Positions 4,165 through 43,125 of a stretch of 64,000 nucleotides of DNA are shown piece by piece. The notes beneath the pieces are model-generated. The model did no database searches, had not been told where the DNA came from, and saw only the letters and a list, made by a program, of their open reading frames with translations. A program made the translations under genes and the position numbers. The stretch is from Nanobdellati archaeon (GTDB lineage Archaea; EX4484-52; GLR71), in contig JAHYJO010000001.1 of the NCBI GenBank assembly GCA_019429125.1, positions 90,065 to 154,064 of the forward strand, in the 5' to 3' direction. Within the stretch, counting starts at the first letter, position 1; the number at the start of each line of letters is the position of its first letter.

Positions 4165-4332
4165 GGCACTGTTCAAAAAGTGAGTTATTTTTAATATTTT
4201 TAAAATATTGTTTGTTTATAAACTCCGGCAGAAATCCATTTAATATACACATTTTACGTAGAATTACAAAATAAATGAAGGTATTTAATTAACTACATTT
4301 TGTTTGAAATCACTCAAAAAATGAACTGTGCC
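4165..4332. mobile_element. MITE copy 1 (IS1595/ISPna2-like ends), 168 bp
   Basis: Terminal inverted repeats GGCACTGTTCA...TGAACTGTGCC; 8-bp target duplication CTTTTTTC at 4157-4164 and 4333-4340. Confidence 0.9.
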
Positions 4333-4483: not shown

Positions 4484-4924
4484 ATTAGTGAATTAAATGT
4501 AGACAAGCTTGTAAGTGAAGGTTGGATTAATGCGTGGCTTGTGTTTGATACTCAGGCTGTTGATAAAACTGTTCTAAAAGGACTTTTATCTGGTCTTTTG
4601 AATAAGATGAAACTTATTAAAGATGTAAAATTTATTAGTGATTCTCTAACTGAGCCTGAACCAATTGAACCTTCCGAACAGTTTACTAAAAAAGGTATAA
4701 CTAAAGTCTTCAGTCAGGTGCTTGAGGTTGAGATTCTTGCAAAAGATTTTGAGACTTTATTGTATTTTGTCATAACATTCGGACCTACAACACTTGATGT
4801 TCTTGCTCCGAAATCTATAAAGTTTGATATGCGCCAGATGCAGAATACGCTTATACTTGTTTCTGAACTGATGCATAGTTATGCGGCGGCCGGTGCTGGT
4901 GGCATGGTACTTACAAAAGTATGA
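4484..4924 (+). CDS. Archaeal hypothetical protein, possibly with an ATT start
   Basis: Frame is open from ATT 4484, 5 nt after AGGTGA; the track start is GTG 4541. Confidence 0.65.
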   Translation: MSELNVDKLVSEGWINAWLVFDTQAVDKTVLKGLLSGLLNKMKLIKDVKFISDSLTEPEPIEPSEQFTKKGITKVFSQVLEVEILAKDFETLLYFVITFGPTTLDVLAPKSIKFDMRQMQNTLILVSELMHSYAAAGAGGMVLTKV

Positions 4925-5875: not shown

Positions 5876-6190
5876 TAGAGTTTTTGGTGGTATTTTTATT
5901 TATAATGTCACCTTTTGTCACCTTGATTATATAATAGCGTCCTCTTCCTGTTATGGGATCCAGTTGAGTAATTAGATTCATTTTAGTTTTTGGACAAATG
6001 CATGTTCTGTCTTTTGTGGATTGTTTAGGCCTATTGGGTTCTTATTGTCATCAACACCTATGATTATCTTTCCCCCTCTGGAATTATAGAATGAGGTTAC
6101 TAATTGTGCTACTTTTTTTGGGTTTGATAATATCTCTTTGAACTCTATGTCACTGTTTTCTTCTTGATTTAATAGTTGTTTAAAGTCCAT
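5876..6190 (-). pseudogene. Internally deleted AlbA_2 (Schlafen-like) domain regulator/ATP-binding protein
   Basis: N-terminal EENSDIEFKE...FYNSRGGKIIIGVDD stops at 70 aa; an out-of-frame tail (MNLITQLDPITGRGRYYII) resembles the terminal wHTH wing. Confidence 0.7.
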
Positions 6191-6197
6191 GTGTCTA

Positions 6198-6255
6198 TAT
6201 TGTTTCTTGTGCTTGCATATAATTGGGTTACAACTGGGGTGGTGATTTTAGGGAG
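6198..6255. repeat. Degenerate copy A of the 58-bp cassette-flanking repeat
   Basis: tgcttgcatataattgggttacaactggggtggtgattttagggag aligns to 11652-11710 with one gap. Confidence 0.65.
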
Positions 6256-6288
6256 TTAGAAAAATATTAGAAAAAGAAAAAAGAGGTT

Positions 6289-6702: not shown

Positions 6703-6937
6703 GTTATATCACCTATATTTATTTTTGGGATTAAGATTTATAAGGGTTTTGATTATTATTTTGTCTTTTTTGGGTTTGTTGGTATTAGGATAGCAGGTTG
6801 TTTATAAATAGACTAGGATTGGAATCCCGAAAGCTTTATAATGTGTGTTTGAAAGTTGTAATCTCTATCGGTAGCTTTTGGCTAAAACCTAACGATGTAT
6901 CAGAAGGTTTATATGGTTTTTGAGTGTATTATTTAGT

Positions 6938-8245
6938 ATGAACTCAATTGAGATACTTGAAATATTGAATGATTGGAACTTTTGGAAAAAGAAGCAATTT
7001 GTGGGTGTTCGGCGGTCAGACGTTTTTGATAAAATAAAAAAACTTATAGAACTTGATGAGATTATCGTGATTAGTGGTGCTCGTCGTACTGGTAAATCAA
7101 CTGTACTTATGCAGATTTGTGAGGATTTGATAGTTAATGGTGTTGATTCTTGTGATATTCTTATAATTAATTTTGAGGATCCTCGTTTTAAAAGTATTAA
7201 TCTTGAATTACTTAATAAAATATATGATGTTTATTTAACTGATGTATCTGTTGGTTCTGGAAAACAGTATGTTGTTCTTGATGAGGTTCAAATTGTTTCG
7301 GGGTGGGAAAAATTTGCTCGTTTTTTGCATGAGAATAAAAAAGTGAAGGTATTTGTTATAGGTTCAAGTTCAAAGCTTTTGAGTTCTGAATATTCAACAG
7401 TTCTTTCTGGGCGTTATGTTGATATTGTTATGTATCCTTTATTTTTTAAGGAGTTTGTTGAATTTAATGGTGTGGATATAAAAAATAATTTGGATCTTGT
7501 GTCTAAACGCCATGCTGTCAAAAAATTATTTTTACAATATATGGAATCTGGGGGTTTTCCGAAAACTGTACTTATTGATGATGCTGATAATCGAAAAGTC
7601 TTGCTTAATTCTTATTTTCAGAGTATATTGATGAAAGATATTGTTATGAGGTATAATATTAACGATGTTTTTAAACTTGAAGAATTGACTAAGTATTATT
7701 TGTCAAATATATCCTCTTTGCATTCTTTTAATAAAATTAAAAATATTATTGGTGGGAGTATTGACACTGTTGAACGGTATTCATCATATCTTCGTAATGC
7801 TTATATGTTATTTTTTGTTCGTAAATTTTCATATACTCTTAAAGATCAAATATTGAATCCTCGAAAGGTATATTGTATTGATATGGGTCTTAGAAATTCA
7901 GTATCTTTTTATTTTTCAAAGGATTATGGGAAGATTATAGAAAATATAGTGTATCTTAAGTTACTTGAAAATAAAGGTTTTGATATTTATTATTGGAAAG
8001 ATTCTAAGCAGCGCGAAGTTGATTTTTTAGTTAAAGAGAAAGATAGGATTTGTCAAGCCATACAGGTGTGTTGGGATGTTAGTAATCCTGTCACTAAAAA
8101 AATAGAGGTTGATGCACTTTTGTCGGCTCTTTCAACATTTGGTCTTAAAGAAGGTCTTGTTCTTACTGAAGATTATGATGAAGTAGTTGTGATTGATGAG
8201 AAAAGAATAACATTTATGTCTGTTTGGAAATGGTTGTTTTTGTGA
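6938..8245 (+). CDS. AAA_14 ATPase with DUF4143 domain (COG1373)
   Basis: Walker A GARRTGKS, Walker B LDEVQ, GSSS, LSGR, GGFP, KVYCIDMGL, EVDFL, IQVC. Confidence 0.9.
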   Translation: MNSIEILEILNDWNFWKKKQFVGVRRSDVFDKIKKLIELDEIIVISGARRTGKSTVLMQICEDLIVNGVDSCDILIINFEDPRFKSINLELLNKIYDVYLTDVSVGSGKQYVVLDEVQIVSGWEKFARFLHENKKVKVFVIGSSSKLLSSEYSTVLSGRYVDIVMYPLFFKEFVEFNGVDIKNNLDLVSKRHAVKKLFLQYMESGGFPKTVLIDDADNRKVLLNSYFQSILMKDIVMRYNINDVFKLEELTKYYLSNISSLHSFNKIKNIIGGSIDTVERYSSYLRNAYMLFFVRKFSYTLKDQILNPRKVYCIDMGLRNSVSFYFSKDYGKIIENIVYLKLLENKGFDIYYWKDSKQREVDFLVKEKDRICQAIQVCWDVSNPVTKKIEVDALLSALSTFGLKEGLVLTEDYDEVVVIDEKRITFMSVWKWLFL

Positions 8246-8579: not shown

Positions 8580-10727
8580 ATGCAATTAAGAAAAATCGGA
8601 ACAGCACTTGTTGGTGCTGTATTGACGAGCGCAACTCTAATGGGTGGCGCTTTGGCTGCTGATTTGGGAACTTTCCCTGCACCATTCGCAACTGATAATG
8701 GAATTCAATCCACTATTGTTGTCGGATCAAGTGGATCAGTACAAGATGTTATAGGCGCAATAAACATTGGCGCAGCTCTAGCACAGGTTGGCGGTACAGT
8801 CGCTGGCGGTGTAGGTGCAACTACAACAGCTACAGGAGTAAAGACAGATGATTTAAAACTTAATGAAGCTGTAAATGTTTTAGGTACAACTCTTAAAGGC
8901 AATAAAATCGCAGGTCTTATTGATACAAAAATAACTTTTGATGATGGAACAAAATCAAGAAATTATGATGTTCATGAAGAGATAGGTCTAACACCAACTC
9001 TTAAGGTTCTTTCCAGTGTTGATGATGCTGATTTTGGAGCAGAGATTGTACTTGCAACTATAAATAAACCAGCTGTAACATACACATATGTTTTTGAAAA
9101 GGATTCAAACATGGATATTTCTAAAATAACAGCTACAAATCCACTTGAAGTTACAATACTTGGTAAGAGACTTAAAATAACTAACGTTGATAATGCATCT
9201 AATTCAATAACAGTACAAGAAGGTATGGAAGTTGCAATGGGTATGGATACTAAAGTAGAAATTGATGGCAAAGTGCTTGAAGTTACTGCAATAGGTCAGG
9301 GTACTGCTGCATTCAAAGTTGGTGTACATACGGCATTTATTAACTATAATTCCGAGTCTCCTGTAACTAAAGAAATTGGAACATCCGGTATTAAAGTAAC
9401 ACTTGATAACCTTCTTTATACAGATGATGCAGGTTCAAGACAGGTTCTTGTAACTGCTGGAACATCAACAACTGATACAATAACTGATGGTGATCCAATG
9501 ACTATGTTTGGTGAAGTTGATGATTCAACTGATGCTGTATGGCTTTGGTCTATAGAGGCTTCAGAGACTCCTGGTGAGGAGCTCAGAATTGGTGCTAAAC
9601 ATAACCAGAAATATGATGAACTTGATGAAGATGTAATAACTCTTGGCAACAAACTATCATTCCCTAATGACTATGCTGCTATATCTCTTGATGCATTAAC
9701 TGTTTCCGATTTTGGTAGATATGAACTATATTTTGAAACGGTTGACTTTACTGTTGGTCCAGATGAACAATCTATTACTACAATTGAAAATGTAAATGTT
9801 ATAACTTTGCGTGCAATTGATGGAAACGATGATGGATTTAAAGTCAGTGTACCAGGTAGTATTGATGAAGATGCAGATATTGTTTATATCGGTTTGAAGG
9901 ATACTACTAATGGTGGTCTTATATATGGGTTTAAAAACTCAAATAATAAGAACCAGATTGCATCATACGGTGAGGAATCTGCTGCTGAGTTTAACTTGAC
10001 TTTTGAAGATACAGTTATGGCTGTTGCAGGTGATAATGAAACAAATCAGGTTACTATTACTGATGCAAACAATGACATAATAGCTCTTAATGTAAGTGCT
10101 ACATGGAATTCATTACAAAAGAAAACTGATGCAGAGGCTGATGATGTTGTTATTGCAACTAAATCTAAGGGTACAGAAGAAAATGATGTAAGAATGACTT
10201 ACGGAACTCTTATTTTGGCACCTAAAGCAAATGCAGAGAAGGATAAAGTAATCTTCGAAGTACCTGCTGAAGTTCTTAAAGTAACTGTAACTGTTAGTGG
10301 ACCTGGTTCATCTGTAACTACTGTTGCTGGTGTTGCTGGTGGATACACTCCTGCTGCACTTCCTGCTACAGGTATTGCAAAGCTTGACAGTGATGCTGAA
10401 GCTGCAAAGACTGGTAACTTAATCCTAGTTGGTGGTCCTGCTGTAAACAGTATTGTTGCTGAACTTGCTGCTGCTGGTAAGACTCGAACTACTGCTCAGT
10501 GGAGAACTGAAACTGATGGTGTAAGAGATTATAAAGACAGTGCTCTTATACAGGCAGTTGACAGTGCATTCACAAACGGTAAAACAGCTCTTGTAGTTGC
10601 TGGTTATGGTGCTGATGACACAGGTAACGCTGCATACGTTCTACAGAACTATGCTAAGTTCGCTGATCAGCTTGCTGGTAAGTCTGAAGTAACTGTTACA
10701 GGTACAACAACTGATGCTGTACAGTAA
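8580..10727 (+). CDS. S-layer protein (S_layer_N / S_layer_C type)
   Basis: LRKIGTALVGAV..ALAADLGTFPAPF..IVVG..DVIGAINI; C-terminal NLILVGGPAVNSIV and ALVVAGYGADDT. Confidence 0.88.
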   Translation: MQLRKIGTALVGAVLTSATLMGGALAADLGTFPAPFATDNGIQSTIVVGSSGSVQDVIGAINIGAALAQVGGTVAGGVGATTTATGVKTDDLKLNEAVNVLGTTLKGNKIAGLIDTKITFDDGTKSRNYDVHEEIGLTPTLKVLSSVDDADFGAEIVLATINKPAVTYTYVFEKDSNMDISKITATNPLEVTILGKRLKITNVDNASNSITVQEGMEVAMGMDTKVEIDGKVLEVTAIGQGTAAFKVGVHTAFINYNSESPVTKEIGTSGIKVTLDNLLYTDDAGSRQVLVTAGTSTTDTITDGDPMTMFGEVDDSTDAVWLWSIEASETPGEELRIGAKHNQKYDELDEDVITLGNKLSFPNDYAAISLDALTVSDFGRYELYFETVDFTVGPDEQSITTIENVNVITLRAIDGNDDGFKVSVPGSIDEDADIVYIGLKDTTNGGLIYGFKNSNNKNQIASYGEESAAEFNLTFEDTVMAVAGDNETNQVTITDANNDIIALNVSATWNSLQKKTDAEADDVVIATKSKGTEENDVRMTYGTLILAPKANAEKDKVIFEVPAEVLKVTVTVSGPGSSVTTVAGVAGGYTPAALPATGIAKLDSDAEAAKTGNLILVGGPAVNSIVAELAAAGKTRTTAQWRTETDGVRDYKDSALIQAVDSAFTNGKTALVVAGYGADDTGNAAYVLQNYAKFADQLAGKSEVTVTGTTTDAVQ

Positions 10728-10738
10728 ATTGTTTGAAT

Positions 10739-10775
10739 GAGGAGCTTTATGCTCCTCTTTTTCTTTTCTTTTTTA
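10739..10775 (+). terminator. Hairpin plus T-tract terminator
   Basis: gaggagc-tttat-gctcctc followed by a T-tract. Confidence 0.75.
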
Positions 10776-10872
10776 ATGTTGATTATTTGTTCTTGAAAAT
10801 TTTATTTTTTGTGTGGTATGAGTATTTTTATAAGTATTAGGATTCCTTATTCTCTAAAAAATGTGGATATTT

Positions 10873-11182
10873 ATGATTACATCGACTAAAATATTGATTG
10901 CTGAATAAGTATCAACAGATTTAGCTTTAAGAAATTCCGCAGATAGATTCTTTGATTTTATTGATTCAATTAAACAAGATAATATAATTATTGATTTTAA
11001 AACGGTTGAATTTATATCTCAATCGTTTGCACATCAGTATTATTTAAGAAAAAAAGTTCTAAAAAAATAATTAATGAAATAAATATGTCATTAAATATAA
11101 AAAAATGTTTAAAATTGTTTCAGAACAAAAACAAAAAAAGCAAGTAATTACTATGAATGCATCTGATGCGATAAGTATTTGA
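10873..11182 (+). pseudogene. Degraded DUF4325/STAS-like small protein
   Basis: MITSTKILIAE*VSTDLALRNSADRFFDFIDSIKQDNIIIDFKTVEFISQSFAHQY, with an in-frame stop and later frameshifts. Confidence 0.6.
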
Positions 11183-11249
11183 GAAAGTTAGTTGGTTTTT
11201 TAGTGATTGGTGTTGTAGTAATTAATTATATTATACTTTTGTATATTTT

Positions 11250-11307
11250 ATTTTTCCAATATGTCTGCATATAATTTAATGATTACTTTTTGTGATGTGT
11301 CTATGAT
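11250..11307. repeat. Degenerate copy B of the 58-bp repeat
   Basis: Ungapped alignment to 11652-11709 (38 of 50 identical over 11251-11300). Confidence 0.7.
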
Positions 11308-11645
11308 GTTTTTTCAATAACTTCCCAATGTCCACCTTTATCAGGACCTATGCGTTTAAGCCGACCTTTTTCTTTTAGCTTCTTGATGTTTTCTTTTATC
11401 TTTCTTTGAGAAATATCCATCAATTCAGATAATTCATTTGCTGAAATACCAGCATCTTTAAGTATAAATTTTATAATATTCTTTTGATTTTTGGTTAATT
11501 TTTCTCCGACCTTTTCAGTGACCTTTTCTCCGACCTTACCATTCAATATTGAAAGATTTTTTCGTTTAAAAACAGCCACAAACGTACCAAATACATCTTT
11601 AAATTCAGTTTCGGGCTCTTTGAATGTTTTTGTTTCTAAATACAT
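11301..11645 (-). pseudogene. C-terminal wHTH fragment of an AlbA_2/HATPase-type (RecG-C-like) regulator
   Basis: EPETEFKD..VGEKVTEKVGEKLTKNQ..ISANELSE..LKRIGPDKGGHWEV; the N-terminal domains are missing. Confidence 0.7.
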
Positions 11646-11651
11646 AATTGG

Positions 11652-11709
11652 GTTTGTTCAACTTGCCTGTATATAATTTAGTGACCACTTTTGGTGGTGT
11701 ATTTAGGGA
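11652..11709. repeat. 58-bp direct repeat, copy C
   Basis: Identical to 12904-12961. Confidence 0.95.
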
Positions 11710-11737
11710 GTTTTACTTAGTTATGTATTTTTTGAGA

Positions 11738-12253
11738 CTAAATTTTGCTATTAATTATTTCTTTGACTTTTGATACAAACATTACTGTATTGATTCTTAA
11801 TTGTTCTATCTCATCATTATCAAATAGTATGTTTGCGGAATATGATGCAAGTTCTCGTTTGTTTTTTGAGTCTACATAGAATAAGATGTCTTTATAATTA
11901 AGAAAAAGTGAGATTAATTCTATATCGTTTCTTGTTAATTCTTTACTGTAAAATTCTTTAATTAGGATACAGAGTGTTGCAAGGTGACTTTTTGAAGAAT
12001 AGCCTTTACTTAATATTAATGCCAATGCAGCATGGTAACAGGCATAATAACATCCGGTTATTGCCCAGTCTGGATAATTCAACTGTATTGCATCTTTTAT
12101 GAAATTGAGATTATGTTTGGCTTTTTGGAAATGACCTTTTATTTCTCCTTTTGATGATTCTTTTTTAATTATTTTTTTATGTATAAAATTTTCTATTCTT
12201 TTTTCAACTAAATGTGGATTATTAAGCATATTATTTAATTCGTAGATATTCAT
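11738..12253 (-). CDS. HEPN-domain protein (partner of the MNT protein)
   Basis: KAKHNL..WAITGCYYACYHAALALI..SKSH..RELASY; overlaps the MNT gene. Confidence 0.85.
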   Translation of the reverse strand: MNIYELNNMLNNPHLVEKRIENFIHKKIIKKESSKGEIKGHFQKAKHNLNFIKDAIQLNYPDWAITGCYYACYHAALALILSKGYSSKSHLATLCILIKEFYSKELTRNDIELISLFLNYKDILFYVDSKNKRELASYSANILFDNDEIEQLRINTVMFVSKVKEIINSKI

Positions 12254-12845
12254 CGTAAATGCACGTATAATAGTATATATGGTTGGTTAACGGATAACCT
12301 GTCTCAATTGCAGATTGAATGACTGGTTCTTCTTTAATTTTAATTTCTTTTTTGAATTTTGGAAGTGTGATCTGAAAATCATTTATTTTCATAGATGTTT
12401 GTGTCTCAACATAGTTTTTTGCATTTGTTGTATCTATTTTTTTATTTGATATGAGCAAAATATCTATATCGGATTCTTTTGTATAATTATTTTTTGCAGT
12501 TGATCCGAAAAGGAACATGATTATCGGTTTTTCGTCTAAGGTGTCTATAAATATGTTAATTGCGTCTTTTCTGAGAGTATTTAATTGTTGCATTTTTTCT
12601 GTGTCAAAACAGGTAAATAATGCATATGTCTCTTTTGTTTTTTTTATTTTGTATCTTTTCATATTCCCTTCTTTTTCAGAACTTAAGATTCTTGAGAGTT
12701 CAAGTTTATTTAGGAATCTGTATGCACTGTTTTCATTAAGTTCTGTTTTTCTGGCAAGTTCTCTAAGGTGAATACATTGATTCTTATTTTCATAGAAGAA
12801 TCTAAGGATTCTTTCAATTCCCGGAGTTATAATATTGTTTAACAT
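12231..12845 (-). CDS. wHTH plus minimal nucleotidyltransferase (MNT) antitoxin
   Basis: IHLRELARKTEL HTH; LFGSTAK..SDIDIL Pol-beta motif. Confidence 0.88.
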   Translation of the reverse strand: MLNNIITPGIERILRFFYENKNQCIHLRELARKTELNENSAYRFLNKLELSRILSSEKEGNMKRYKIKKTKETYALFTCFDTEKMQQLNTLRKDAINIFIDTLDEKPIIMFLFGSTAKNNYTKESDIDILLISNKKIDTTNAKNYVETQTSMKINDFQITLPKFKKEIKIKEEPVIQSAIETGYPLTNHIYYYTCIYDEYLRIK

Positions 12846-12903
12846 ATTTCAACAATTGTTTAATTGTTTTAAACAGTTATATGTTTGTTGGTTATATCAA
12901 TAT

Positions 12904-12961
12904 GTTTGTTCAACTTGCCTGTATATAATTTAGTGACCACTTTTGGTGGTGTATTTAGGGA
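12904..12961. repeat. 58-bp direct repeat, copy D
   Basis: Identical to 11652-11709. Confidence 0.95.
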
Positions 12962-13004
12962 AATGTCTTTTAATATTTAAAATTATACATACCTTATCTA
13001 TTTT

Positions 13005-14144
13005 ATGGATAAAATAAAGGCAAAATTGAAGCAGATGCCATCTGATTTTGTTGTGAAAGAGATATTACCTGATAAGCGCATTCTTGATATTAATACCCAA
13101 TTTGATTATCCAAATGAGGGAAATACTTTACATTGTATACTTAAAAAAGAGGATTTTGATCAGTTCCGCGCTGTAGGCATCATTGCATCTGAATTGGGAA
13201 TTGCTTCAAAAGATGTTGCTATATGTGGAACAAAGGATAAGATAGCGCATACAACACAGAGAGTGTCTATTAAAGGGTGTAAGAGTGTTGATATAGATAA
13301 ACTTGTGTTGGGCGACATAAGTATTAAATATCTTGGCAGAGGGCCTGAATTGCGCATTGGTGAGCTTTACGGCAATCACTTTGAGATTGTTTTGAGAGGC
13401 ATTGATATAGATAAAGAGGAACTCTCAAAATATCTTCAAAAAATAAAAGACAATCCTAAATTTCCCAATCATTTCGGTGAGCAGAGGTTTGGGTCTATAA
13501 GACCTATATCACACATTGTAGGAAAACATGTAATTCTTGGTGATTTTAAGGGTGCTGTGCTTGATTATATCTGTCTTTGCTTTCCTCGGGAGTCTGAAAT
13601 GATACAAAAAGCCAGAATTAAGGCAAAGAGTGACATTAAGGCTGCTCTTGAACTGTTTCCTAAGTCTTCATATTATGAGCGGGTGATGATGTCTCATCTG
13701 ATTGAGAAACCAGAGGATTATCGTGGTGCCTTTTTTAGGTTGCCACCCAATCTTCAGAAACTTATGGTGCACGCTTATCAGTCATATCTTTTTAATAGGA
13801 TTTTAGATAAAGTAATAGCTTCAGGTTTTGGTAATCGTATGCTTGAGATACCTCTGTTCGGGTTTGGGATGAACATACCAAAAGATCCTAAATTAGTTGC
13901 TATAATGCGCGAGGTCCTTAAGGCAGAGAATATTAGTCTTGGTAATTTTAGGGATGATTCTTCAAGACAATTGGGGTCAAAAGGTGGTCGCAGAAAGGCA
14001 TTTCAGACTGCAGAACAATTTAAGGTTGTAGAAATCGGTGACGATGAACTTAATTTAGGAAAAATAAAATGTAAAATATCTTTCTCGCTTCGTAAAGGGA
14101 CATATGCAACTGTTTTTTTAGGTAATAATTTTGACTTGTCTTGA
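13005..14144 (+). CDS. truD: tRNA pseudouridine(13) synthase
   Basis: PSDFVVKE, GTKDK, GNHFEI, FPNHFGEQRFG, HAYQSYLFN, FSLRKGTYAT. Confidence 0.95.
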   Translation: MDKIKAKLKQMPSDFVVKEILPDKRILDINTQFDYPNEGNTLHCILKKEDFDQFRAVGIIASELGIASKDVAICGTKDKIAHTTQRVSIKGCKSVDIDKLVLGDISIKYLGRGPELRIGELYGNHFEIVLRGIDIDKEELSKYLQKIKDNPKFPNHFGEQRFGSIRPISHIVGKHVILGDFKGAVLDYICLCFPRESEMIQKARIKAKSDIKAALELFPKSSYYERVMMSHLIEKPEDYRGAFFRLPPNLQKLMVHAYQSYLFNRILDKVIASGFGNRMLEIPLFGFGMNIPKDPKLVAIMREVLKAENISLGNFRDDSSRQLGSKGGRRKAFQTAEQFKVVEIGDDELNLGKIKCKISFSLRKGTYATVFLGNNFDLS

Positions 14145-14620: not shown

Positions 14621-15322
14621 TTATTGGTATATATTAAAGATGGTCTCAAGTTCGTCTTTTTCGACAAAACCTTTTCTTATAGTGTCAAAATTGATTATCA
14701 TTGCTGGTAAATTATCTATATCTATATTGTAGCTATTACGTATTGTGCTTATCAATGGGTCTTTATCATATTCACCGTCTATTGATAGAACTACAAGTTT
14801 TCCGTGTTTTTTGTATCCGTTTTCTTGTTTTGTGTCATCATTGTATTTTTTTACAAATTCGTCAAGTATGTATCCTTGTATTTCTGAAGTTTTATCATCT
14901 ATCTTGTAAAAATACAGTATAGGTGTATACTCATCTTTGCATGAATCCTGATAGTTGTGTATATGATTATAAAATTTTATTTCCATCAGGAAATATCTGC
15001 GTTTCAGGTATTCAAATTCTGTTTTTTTGAAATCAGATGCACTACCGTATCGTTGCAGTTCACGGCCAGTCTCGCCAAGGTCTTTACTTATCATTTCTAT
15101 TCTAGGGGTTAGTATCTTACAATCTATGTTTCCTATGTTTTCTAAAAATATCCATTCTATATTATAGCTTTCACTGTTTAGTTCATTGTCTTTTATTATG
15201 TTTAATACTTCATTAGTCCTGTAATTGTCAAGAACCCAACCTATCATGATACCGCTTGTGAAGATGACTATTGCTGCTATAAGGCTTGTTATAAATATGT
15301 GTTTTATGTATTGTTCTTTCAT
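14621..15322 (-). CDS. Membrane-anchored protein with a thioredoxin-like C-terminal domain
   Basis: N-terminal TM helix; ILYFY..SEIQGYILD..VLSID..YNI..LPAMII. Confidence 0.65.
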   Translation of the reverse strand: MKEQYIKHIFITSLIAAIVIFTSGIMIGWVLDNYRTNEVLNIIKDNELNSESYNIEWIFLENIGNIDCKILTPRIEMISKDLGETGRELQRYGSASDFKKTEFEYLKRRYFLMEIKFYNHIHNYQDSCKDEYTPILYFYKIDDKTSEIQGYILDEFVKKYNDDTKQENGYKKHGKLVVLSIDGEYDKDPLISTIRNSYNIDIDNLPAMIINFDTIRKGFVEKDELETIFNIYQ

Positions 15323-18784: not shown

Positions 18785-19920
18785 TTATTGAATTAATACA
18801 TTATTATAGGGATAGTCATAATCACTTCCAGATATATTTATCTTGTTAATCTCATTCAGGTTGTTAAGTCCATTTATCTTTATTAGGCCATCTGATATGG
18901 TATATAGAAAATCACCAATGTATAATGATCTTTTTATCGAGTATTTTGAGCCATAATAATACCAGTTGTTATTGTCTATATTTTCATCTTCATCTGAGTG
19001 GGTGATTCTGTCTCTTAATTGTATGCCGTTATTTGTGTCAATGTTGAATACGTACGCGCCTTGCCATTTATATTCACCATAAGCCCAACTAGGTATTTCA
19101 TCTTTATATTGACTTTTGTCAATTTCAGCTAAAAGTATTGGTATTACAAGCAGGTTTTTTTCTTTGTCAAACAGGAATGCTTTAGGGTCTTGTAGTGCGT
19201 ATGAATCTGTGCCACGGTCACCTATTTCAAATTTAGATATCTCTATTGGGGTATCTATGTATGTCACGTCAAAAAGCGCAATTTTTACTCCTGTATACCA
19301 TGCAAAGTCGCCAGTTTTTGATGCTATTGCTTCTTTACCTATTCCGATTATATGATTTTTATCATATGGATGAAGATAGTCTGAGGATCCTGGTATCTTT
19401 AATTTTCCTGCGACTGTCGGTTTTGTTGGGTCTTTAAGGTCTATTACAAATAATGGGTCGACTTTTTTGAATGTGACCATGTATGCTGTGTCACCCATGA
19501 ACCTTGCTGAGTATATGCTTTCACCAGGTGCTAAATCTTCTACTTTTCCTATTATATTCATTTTTTCATCAAGGACATATAGGTTGTTTATTGTAGTGGG
19601 TAGGGTTGGTCTTGATTTTACTATCTGTGTCGGTGCTATTTTTTGTGCGATTGCTATTGTTGATTCAGTGTTCGTTTGAGTATCTGTTATTGATGATGTG
19701 GATGTCATTTCTTGTTGACTATTAGATACTACAGTTGCAGTATTTAGAATTGCTGGAACCATTGTTCTTGTCTGTGTTCTAATTCCCATACTCACATTAT
19801 TTACTCTAACAGTGGTTCCTATCCTGAAATATTCGTTGTGTTCATCTATCGAAAATTGGTTGAGTGGGGTACCAGGAACTTCTCCCGAATCTTCATAGTT
19901 TATATTTCCATCCTTTATTC
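18785..19920 (-). pseudogene. 5'-truncated secreted beta-propeller protein (COG4880-like)
   Basis: Frame stays open upstream of 19795 (GEVPGTPLNQFSIDE) up to the MITE at 19921; IYSARF, VTFKKVDPLFVIDL, GKLKIPG.SDYLHP; no start codon or signal peptide. Confidence 0.8.
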
Positions 19921-20088
19921 TGCACTGTTCAAAAAGGGAGTGATTTTAAATATTTTTTAAATATTGTTTGTTTATAAACTCTGGCAGAAAACCCTTTAAT
20001 ATATACATTTCACGCAGAATTAAAAAAGAAATGAAGGTATTTAATTAACTACATTTTGTTTGAAATCACTCAAAAAATGAACTGTGCC
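19921..20088. mobile_element. MITE copy 2, 168 bp, no target duplication
   Basis: Closely similar to 4165-4332; first base is T rather than G; flanks differ from each other. Confidence 0.88.
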
Positions 20089-20157
20089 GGTTTTGTTCGG
20101 GTGTTATCCCTAAAGAATTTGGTGATTTTTTGGTTTTTAATTATAAATAAAGGTTAA

Positions 20158-42956: not shown

Positions 42957-43125
42957 GGCACTGTTCATTTTTCGAGTGATTTCAAACAGAATGTAGTTAA
43001 ATTAAAGACCTTTATTTCTTTTGTAATTCAACGTGAAATGTGTATATTAAATGGATCTCTGCAGGTGTTTATAAACAAACAATATCTAAAAAATATTCAA
43101 AATCACTCACTTTTTGAACAGTGCC
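42957..43125. mobile_element. MITE copy 3 (inverted orientation), 169 bp
   Basis: GGCACTGTTCA...TGAACAGTGCC; 8-bp target duplication TGATAACC at 42949-42956 and 43126-43133. Confidence 0.92.

Follow-up and report, generated by a model that had tools for sequence, protein, structure and literature searches.

How does a putative toxin-antitoxin (TA) pair come to lie between two identical copies of a 58-bp sequence in a small archaeal genome? The question is raised by 64,000 nucleotides (nt) of a Nanobdellati archaeon (GTDB lineage Archaea; EX4484-52; GLR71; assembly GCA_019429125.1, contig JAHYJO010000001.1, positions 90,065 to 154,064 of the forward strand), hereafter the window, where a HEPN gene and a gene for a minimal nucleotidyltransferase with a helix-turn-helix domain (HTH-MNT) are bracketed in this way between an S-layer protein gene and truD. 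An earlier note, made from the letters of the window, proposed that the repeats are sites for a trans-acting tyrosine recombinase that stacks accessory modules. The analysis reported here favors a different answer, in which the repeat is a reused promoter/operator box, here called the P-box, and its dispersed copies are substrates for homologous recombination; we give this full model a probability of about 60%.

Little is understood of how small, reduced archaeal genomes gain, express and shuffle defense and TA genes when they have no obvious mobile-element machinery. A box confined to one genus, of the kind described below, may do two jobs at once, wiring incoming genes into host regulation and providing portable homology for moving them. 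It would offer a simple and testable mechanism for accessory-gene turnover, and a concrete case of promoter reuse in archaea in which comparisons bear on how the copies spread and stay identical.

The repeat and its copies in the window

The layout given in the earlier note is correct: repeat, gene for a winged helix-turn-helix (wHTH) protein, repeat, HEPN and HTH-MNT genes, repeat. Every gene is encoded on the minus strand (wHTH open reading frame [ORF], 11301-11645; HEPN, 11738-12253; HTH-MNT, 12231-12845), and all P-box copies at the locus read along that strand, towards the genes. The 58-mer has exactly two exact copies in the window, c2 (11652-11709, minus strand) and c3 (12904-12961, minus strand), which are 58/58 identical and 1252 bp apart; none of 100 dinucleotide shuffles contained two or more matches to it, and chance is thereby excluded. 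Copy c3 is separated by 59 nt from the start of the HTH-MNT gene downstream (12845) and scores 47.2 bits with the family model R1 described below; it contains the dyad ACCAC/GTGGT at 12936-12950 and a TATA element at 12921-12928 (TTATATAC on the minus strand). The TATA element of c2 (11669-11676, likewise TTATATAC) occupies -31 to -24 relative to the ATG at 11645 of the wHTH ORF, with its center near -27, which is the layout of a leaderless gene.

An ungapped scan of both strands of the whole genome (G000; a 1.16-Mb draft in 32 contigs, GC 34%) finds 58/58 twice, with runners-up of 41/58 at 11250-11307 and at G000:C22:3739-3796. Five mononucleotide-shuffled genomes reach a best score of only 32-34/58, so the degenerate copy c1 (11250-11307, minus strand), which matches c2 at 41/58 and overlaps the stop codon of the wHTH ORF just as the earlier note described, is real. 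It is an orphan, with no ORF of at least 40 amino acids (aa) downstream, and a counterpart was not found in the orthologous spacer of a relative (G006:C125). The same note counted four copies; a fourth, c4, does exist at about 6196-6257 (minus strand), but it aligns with the 58-mer only with a gap (32/58 ungapped). It stands 19 nt, counted from the end of the 41-mer, upstream of an ORF for an AlbA_2 N-terminal fragment (5978-6190, minus strand), the same spacing as between c2 and the wHTH ORF. Exact searches with the 58-mer among metagenome contigs and an Rfam search of positions 10600-13100 at E<=1 each returned 0 matches.

A probable promoter element with an operator-like dyad

Read along the minus strand, the roughly 60-bp P-box consists of a short conserved lead-in (TCCCTAAA), an imperfect dyad, and a TATA box with its preceding TFB recognition element (BRE), here ACTAAATTATATAC; in c2, 18 nt more lead from ACTAAATTATATAC to the ATG of the wHTH ORF. 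The dyad is weak (GTnACC-N9-GGTnAC, which in the 58-mer includes ACCAC-N5-GTGGT), and the consensus of 45 sites from related genomes is AAAGTCACCCAC-NN-AGGTGGTYACCAA-NTTATATRC. Across those 45 sites one pair of the dyad is Watson-Crick in 98% and the others in 40-76%, which exceeds the pairing in shifted registers; a dimeric transcription factor probably binds there.

Archaeal core promoters carry an A+T-rich TATA box centered about 26-27 nt upstream of the transcription start, with a purine-rich BRE before it, and face the gene that they serve. In silico, the P-box has the TATA position and gene-facing orientation of such a BRE/TATA core promoter. A position weight matrix (PWM) built from nine own-genome sites chosen by coordinates finds 48 sites in the genome, as against 17 in shuffles, at the final threshold, and a start codon follows 18-19 nt past the 41-mer in eight of its 30 top matches. 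The independent copies in relatives behave alike: a co-oriented ORF lies within 185 nt of 42 of the 45 (two run off the contig and one is an orphan), and the start codon falls 17-21 nt past the 41-mer in 17/45, at exactly 19 nt in 15. A crude profile of the promoters of 861 long ORFs gives a weak mixture of TATA and Shine-Dalgarno signals, so the dyad is not general to promoters. Taken from sequence and spacing, the P-box is very probably a promoter element with an upstream operator-like dyad that is common to mostly accessory genes. Transcription would be predicted to start about 24 nt past the TATA, a position that would coincide with the start codon for many of these genes. The earlier note had allowed that the repeat might be only a duplicated promoter; the promoter part of that alternative agrees with these data, and the word "only" does not, since the box also sits at recombination junctions (see "Exact pairs, gene conversion, and exchange of cargo").

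A genus-specific family and the genes that it heads

The earlier note expected further copies, and they are plentiful. R1, a sequence-only Infernal model made from 16 own-genome sites with matches counted at E<=1e-4, has 18 matches in G000, 14, 13, 12, 3, and 2 in five of seven congeners, 0 in the remaining two, and 1 in one genome of a sister genus, which makes 45 in relatives. The negative control, 32 genomes drawn from seven further families of the order, gave 0 matches in every genome; the P-box is therefore genus-specific. Sixteen of the 18 matches in G000 are training members of the model, and only the matches in relatives, whose records carry the label Candidatus Nanohaloarchaea archaeon metagenome-assembled genomes, are independent. 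By an unscripted hand count, 13 of these 45 matches lie less than 500 nt from a contig end, about twice the share expected from contig numbers and genome sizes, as if assemblies break at variable units.

P-boxes head single-gene or two-gene units, mostly with accessory DNA-binding, nuclease, or TA genes; in relatives, too, they stand before TA or defense-type genes, in line with the suggestion that copies flank variable genes of these kinds. Among 42 downstream ORFs, Pfam recognizes AlbA_2 (11, mostly with HATPase_c_4 and a wHTH), YhcG/DUF1016 (5), ORF6N (4), nucleotidyltransferase of the HTH-MNT type (3), TctA (2), and Bro-N, RadA, and PolB (1 each), and no Pfam family matches 14/42, among them three small conserved families. 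Box sub-types track the downstream gene family, as read from alignments and listings. In G000, five of the seven AlbA_2 matches have a P-box upstream. HTH-MNT units with a single native box occur at G007:C98, G009:C57, G001:C68, and G000:C17:60600, and MNT homologues outside the genus (G035 and G031; 53% and 44% aa identity) have no P-box. PolB was dropped as a box-driven gene because polB of G000 stands without a box (best PWM score 3.3). The AlbA_2 N-terminal fragment behind c4 is 70 aa long, with a TGA inside the Pfam match, and an intact 476-aa orthologue with its own P-box exists in G007:C33; AlbA_2-type genes are decaying in this genome.

RadB and an OB-fold gene each stand behind a box as well. 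In G000, radA and radB each have a P-box (G000:C14:17947-18007 and 19818-19878), an arrangement conserved in G006 (G006:C59), and a radA-type box is also present in G004 (G004:C102). These boxes hint at a regulon that may join recombination genes with accessory DNA-binding, nuclease, and TA genes. The P-box thus marks a candidate regulon of radA, radB, AlbA_2-type regulators, nucleases, and TA pairs.

Exact pairs, gene conversion, and exchange of cargo

Other modules are bracketed as the one in the window is, as the earlier note's reading would have it. A second exact pair, of another P-box sub-type, comprises 63 bp at G000:C32:3375-3437 and 4556-4618 (1181 bp apart) and brackets a gene for YhcG, a PDDEXK nuclease, directly upstream of an AlbA_2 gene; a third, of 48 bp in G002:C13 (1166 bp apart), brackets another HTH-MNT/HEPN pair. 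In each of the three cases the identical tract begins 0-5 nt ahead of the 41-mer and runs on to 5-27 nt past it, a span that is the family's own homology.

The third pair allows the origin of such identity to be followed, because the interval in which it lies, between two genes here called A and B, can be compared in three genomes. In G009 the order is A, box-MNT-HEPN, B; in G002 it is A, box1-MNT-HEPN, box2-leader remnant-ORF6N fragment, B; and in G001 (contig C57) it is A, box-three ORF6N genes, box-short wHTH-Fic, B. By their flanks, box1 and box2 of G002 are orthologous to the two separate boxes of G001, which are 87% alike over 45 nt, and the G002 boxes are 48/48 identical to each other with a common derived 3-nt deletion. 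Separate orthologues in G001, identity in G002, and the common deletion together mean that the identity of the neighboring G002 boxes arose by gene conversion and not by a fresh target duplication. Cargo has changed at the same place: behind the orthologous box adjacent to gene A stands MNT-HEPN in G009 and G002 and the three ORF6N genes in G001. The cargo breakpoint falls about 35-45 nt downstream of the TATA, outside the dyad.

Two further repeats at such places are of other kinds. In G001:C57 a 42-nt direct repeat of the 3' end of gene B (4236-4277 and 5992-6033, 83%), which is no P-box, brackets the box-short wHTH-Fic segment. An apparent duplication around MNT-HEPN in G003:C72 (259 nt, 72%) was not counted, as it may be two tandem YhcG paralogues.

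The S-layer-truD interval in relatives

A TruD search returned only three related records, the contigs G003:C35, G007:C42, and G006:C125. The interval between the S-layer gene (8580-10727, plus strand; conserved left flank) and truD (13005-14144, plus strand; conserved right flank) forms an allelic series. It is empty in G007 (118 nt) and G002 (112 nt), and neither empty interval contains a P-box by the R1 model. In G003 it holds one P-box and an intact 442-aa AlbA_2-HATPase_c_4-wHTH gene; in G006, a HATPase fragment, an intact DUF4325 gene, and a relic of an AlbA_2 3' end, without a P-box; and in G000, in order, a decayed DUF4325 gene, the orphan c1, the short wHTH ORF, c2, HEPN, HTH-MNT, and c3. 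The earlier note had suggested looking here for strains with a single repeat at an empty site: the interval does vary and G003 has a one-repeat allele, but the truly empty alleles of G007 and G002 have no repeat at all.

The upstream, truD-side flank of c3 is orthologous to the truD spacer of G003, and on its downstream side c2 is flanked by sequence that aligns with the start of the G003 AlbA_2 gene; both flanks are contiguous with the single G003 box. Relative to G003, therefore, G000 has an extra 1194 bp and a second copy of the box. This inter-box segment (11710-12903, minus strand) consists of MNT-HEPN and its 59-nt leader, has a GC content of 26.8% as against 33.6% for the window, and is absent at this locus in G003, G007, G002, and G006.

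In the wHTH ORF that c2 now heads (114 aa; HTH_24, 3.8e-9), a few N-terminal codons are fused to about the last 105 aa of a protein of the AlbA_2-HATPase_c_4-wHTH type. It aligns with residues 348-438 of the 442-aa G003 protein at 36% identity, and its DNA has 79% mean column identity to the same short form at another locus, G001:C57, where that form has its own P-box upstream and a Fic gene behind it. On this comparison (36% against G003, 79% of DNA columns against the G001 short form) the ORF was dropped as a simple decayed orthologue of the G003 AlbA_2 gene.

Proposed recombination between boxes and its alternatives

The full model runs as follows. Where 45-60 bp of near-identical sequence stands before unrelated genes, host homologous recombination would act on pairs of boxes; a crossover between boxes would insert, delete, or swap units of box plus gene, and a non-crossover event, that is gene conversion, would make neighboring boxes identical. 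In the window, a box-driven AlbA_2-type unit would once have adjoined truD, and the HTH-MNT/HEPN pair would now lie between two copies of that unit's box, with each unit keeping a promoter; the 58/58 identity of c2 and c3 would stem from recent box-by-box recombination or conversion. Such recombination explains together the exact pairs (through conversion), the one- and two-box alleles (through crossover), the exchange of cargo, and the orphan boxes. The cassette-like behavior is real, and ordinary homologous recombination and gene conversion suffice for the pattern; that homologous recombination was the agent at this particular locus is what we infer from it.

Several observations weigh against this model. 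The model presumes that about 50-60 bp would suffice for homologous recombination in this lineage, and its promoter activity and transcription start are predictions from sequence features. Because the empty alleles have no box in the interval that the box-AlbA_2 unit entered, box-by-box recombination cannot explain every step, and the event at the locus may have been an insertion in G000 or a deletion in G003. Both the PWM and R1 were trained on own-genome sites chosen by their likeness to the 58-mer, and just two of the five HTH-MNT paralogues in G000 have a P-box. A further HTH-MNT/HEPN pair, in G000:C23, is bracketed by a 131-nt, 88% repeat that is no P-box (13757-13886 and 15056-15177, 39 nt of it exact). 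That repeat is the upstream region of the Bro-N gene that follows, and a partial third copy stands at C32:9920-9992; the pair itself is only 28% identical to that in the window. This case hints at a duplication-generating insertion process that may be more general, or specific to MNT-HEPN.

It is on that case that a true target-site duplication draws, in which MNT-HEPN (or YhcG) would have been inserted after hypothetical cuts on both sides of a promoter covered by protein, with the overhangs then filled. Set against G003, the layout in the window does resemble a clean insertion with a 58-bp duplication, and the three exact cases fit the box tightly (48, 58, and 63 bp). Yet the lengths differ from case to case (48, 58, 63, and about 131 bp), the insert ends show no terminal inverted repeats to the reading eye, and neither transposase nor casposase is encoded nearby; moreover, the G002 boxes pre-existed as separate orthologous sites, and the modules are only 23-31% identical to one another, so they are not one element. 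We regard this origin as quite unlikely. Pure regulatory reuse, with an MNT-HEPN pair that already had its own P-type promoter landing beside the AlbA_2 unit by unrelated means and the boxes being homogenized later, finds precedent in the other HTH-MNT units with single native boxes and in the conversion demonstrated in G002. It has to contend with the junction between truD spacer and c3, which lies at the same nucleotide as the spacer-box junction of G003; such agreement is what a crossover inside the box should produce and would otherwise be a coincidence, and we hold unaided reuse to be unlikely. That the pattern is an assembly artefact or a chance similarity is a negligible prospect: the genome is indeed a fragmented draft of 32 contigs, but the shuffles speak against chance, independent assemblies of other species show the same arrangement, and both copies have unique orthologous flanks.

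Dedicated sites for a trans-acting tyrosine recombinase, stacking cassettes in the manner of integrons or pdif modules, were what the earlier note proposed. In its favor, the dyad has a pair of short inverted half-sites with a short spacer between them, the genus often has boxes in tandem on one strand with differing cargo, one-box and two-box alleles occur as do orphan boxes (c1; G006:C24:2584), and two tyrosine recombinases are encoded in the genome, on contig C25. The dyad is weak, however, and the cargo breakpoint falls 35-45 nt past the TATA and not within the dyad. A crossover in the core would leave hybrid sites, not 58/58 identity to the limits of the family's homology. The empty alleles are without a site, the boxes stand 5' of genes at a fixed promoter distance, and no recombinase gene lies near any of the arrays inspected. 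With the promoter phasing in relatives and the gene conversion in G002 added to these, the proposal has become improbable.

One extension of the recombination model goes further, and we advance it as a speculation that we hold to be unlikely: the P-box could be a recombinase-independent, RadA-driven gene-capture platform in a DPANN-type archaeon, integron-like in outcome, with the radA and radB boxes coupling cassettes to a DNA-damage or recombination regulon. If so, units that carry a box or land behind one would be excised, re-inserted, swapped, or homogenized, each gaining a host-regulated promoter, and this coupling of cassette expression, perhaps also of cassette shuffling, would give archaea a counterpart to the dynamics of integrons and TA genes under SOS control.

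Comparison with known systems

The closest described phenomenon is promoter reuse through putative mobile promoters (PMPs), defined by at least 80% identity over at least 50 nt upstream of non-homologous genes in one genome; their mode of movement was left unknown (Nijveen, Matus-Garcia & van Passel 2012, PMC3575422). The c2/c3 pair, 58/58 before the wHTH ORF and the HTH-MNT gene with no similarity beyond the repeat, falls within this definition, and so does the 63/63 pair before YhcG and AlbA_2 in G000:C32. The P-box differs from PMPs in that the family is archaeal, with BRE/TATA elements and leaderless phasing, numbers 12-18 copies per 1-Mb genome in four species, is tied to a few accessory families, and offers comparisons that speak directly for conversion and for exchange of cargo at the box. 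The range surveyed in that study, -150 to -50 (PMC3575422), would miss most leaderless P-box copies.

Like integron cassettes, the arrays consist of small accessory or TA modules in tandem on the same strand with a recurring element of about 60 bp, and the number of modules varies between strains. In integrons the attC site lies at the 3' end of each cassette, whereas here each unit has at its 5' end its own copy of the element, which is itself the predicted promoter. There is no integrase, attI, or common cassette promoter (Pc) beside the array: the earlier note was right that the window encodes no recombinase, and the only two PF00589 matches of the genome are the pair on C25. It was right as well that the 58-mer lacks the extended hairpin of an attC site, as its sole internal palindrome is a 5-bp stem (-3.9 kcal/mol, z about -1) and 34-38 of 200 shuffles fold equally well.

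The archaeal XerA/dif site has two imperfect 11-bp inverted arms and a 6-bp spacer and is present in a single copy per chromosome (Cortez et al. 2010, PMC2958812). The short A+T-rich motif TGTATATAA of the P-box resembles part of a dif arm, and the earlier note had likened the core TGYATATAAT to one arm; but this is the TATA box seen on the other strand, the best pair of 11-nt arms (spacers of 4-10 nt, positions 11640-11725) is complementary at just 6/11, and G000 has 18 copies. The chromosomal dif copy lies near the terminus. Modules of the pdif type carry TA genes, and pdif pairs alternate in orientation around them. The boxes of the P-box arrays, unlike these, are all oriented as their genes. 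A dif-like or attC-like nature of the P-box is not supported.

Correia elements, ERICs, and REPINs are promoter-bearing dispersed repeats (named in PMC3575422). The P-box shares with them that a short multi-copy intergenic sequence can supply promoters; unlike them, it has around it no terminal inverted repeats or short target duplications that could be seen by reading. A miniature inverted-repeat transposable element (MITE) was likewise rejected as a description of the P-box, the aligned copies being judged by reading to have no inverted ends.

MntA-type nucleotidyltransferases have the catalytic motif GSx(9-13)DxD. The pair in the window resembles the type VII MntA/HepT system in that the gene for an MNT with a GS...DxD motif directly precedes a HEPN gene and overlaps it, and differs from it in the N-terminal wHTH of the MNT and in the score of 27.6 bits against the NCBIfam MntA equivalog, under the cut-off of 60. 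The pair is best described as an MNT/HEPN-like putative toxin-antitoxin.

Genes of the locus and other repeats in the window

The putative antitoxin HTH-MNT (12231-12845, minus strand; 204 aa) joins an N-terminal wHTH to the minimal nucleotidyltransferase domain and matches NTP_transf_2 (1.5e-8), Polbeta (1.6e-8), HTH_IclR (3.7e-4), and the PADLOC candidate PDC-M05A (1.7e-20); its translation contains FGSTAKNNYTKESDIDIL, which fits the catalytic motif. A search of the genome-contig collection with this protein found no relative. The HEPN-domain protein, the putative toxin (11738-12253, minus strand; 171 aa), is encoded by a gene that overlaps the MNT gene by 23 nt. Its Pfam match is weak (E 5.8e-6; 26.9 bits as against a cut-off of 22), NCBIfam and PADLOC give no match, and the Rx4-6H motif is not evident at its usual place; an N-terminal RIENFIH and a central SKSH are all that inspection by eye picks out.

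Convergent with the wHTH ORF lies a decayed DUF4325 (STAS-like) pseudogene with in-frame stops (10874-11182, plus strand). Compared with the intact gene in G006:C125, whose product matches DUF4325 at 5.7e-4, it has a premature TAA and 1-nt deletions. On the other side of the interval, truD has a TATA-like stretch of its own at about 12972-12981, divergent from c3. The interval upstream of the S-layer gene is variable too: an AAA_14/DUF4143 ATPase gene at 6920-8245 (plus strand), which matches the PADLOC candidate PDC-S01 at E 5.6e-116, has no counterpart in the syntenic interval of G007:C42.

The genome also contains a MITE-like repeat of about 170 bp with inverted ends, quite unlike the P-box, which starts with GGCACTGTTCA and ends with TGAACTGTGCC. 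BLAST lists 36 rows for it in the genome, including the query, mostly at 89-94% identity, and copies in the window stand at 4165-4332, 19913-20094, and 42957-43125 (minus strand), two of which flank a 15.7-kb stretch containing the repeat-bracketed MNT-HEPN locus. A second dispersed family, with exact stretches of 50-100 nt in several copies of intergenic-looking A+T-rich sequence, occurs at G000:C13:31991 and 41449, G000:C16:34358 and 70648, and C23:23270 and 31372.

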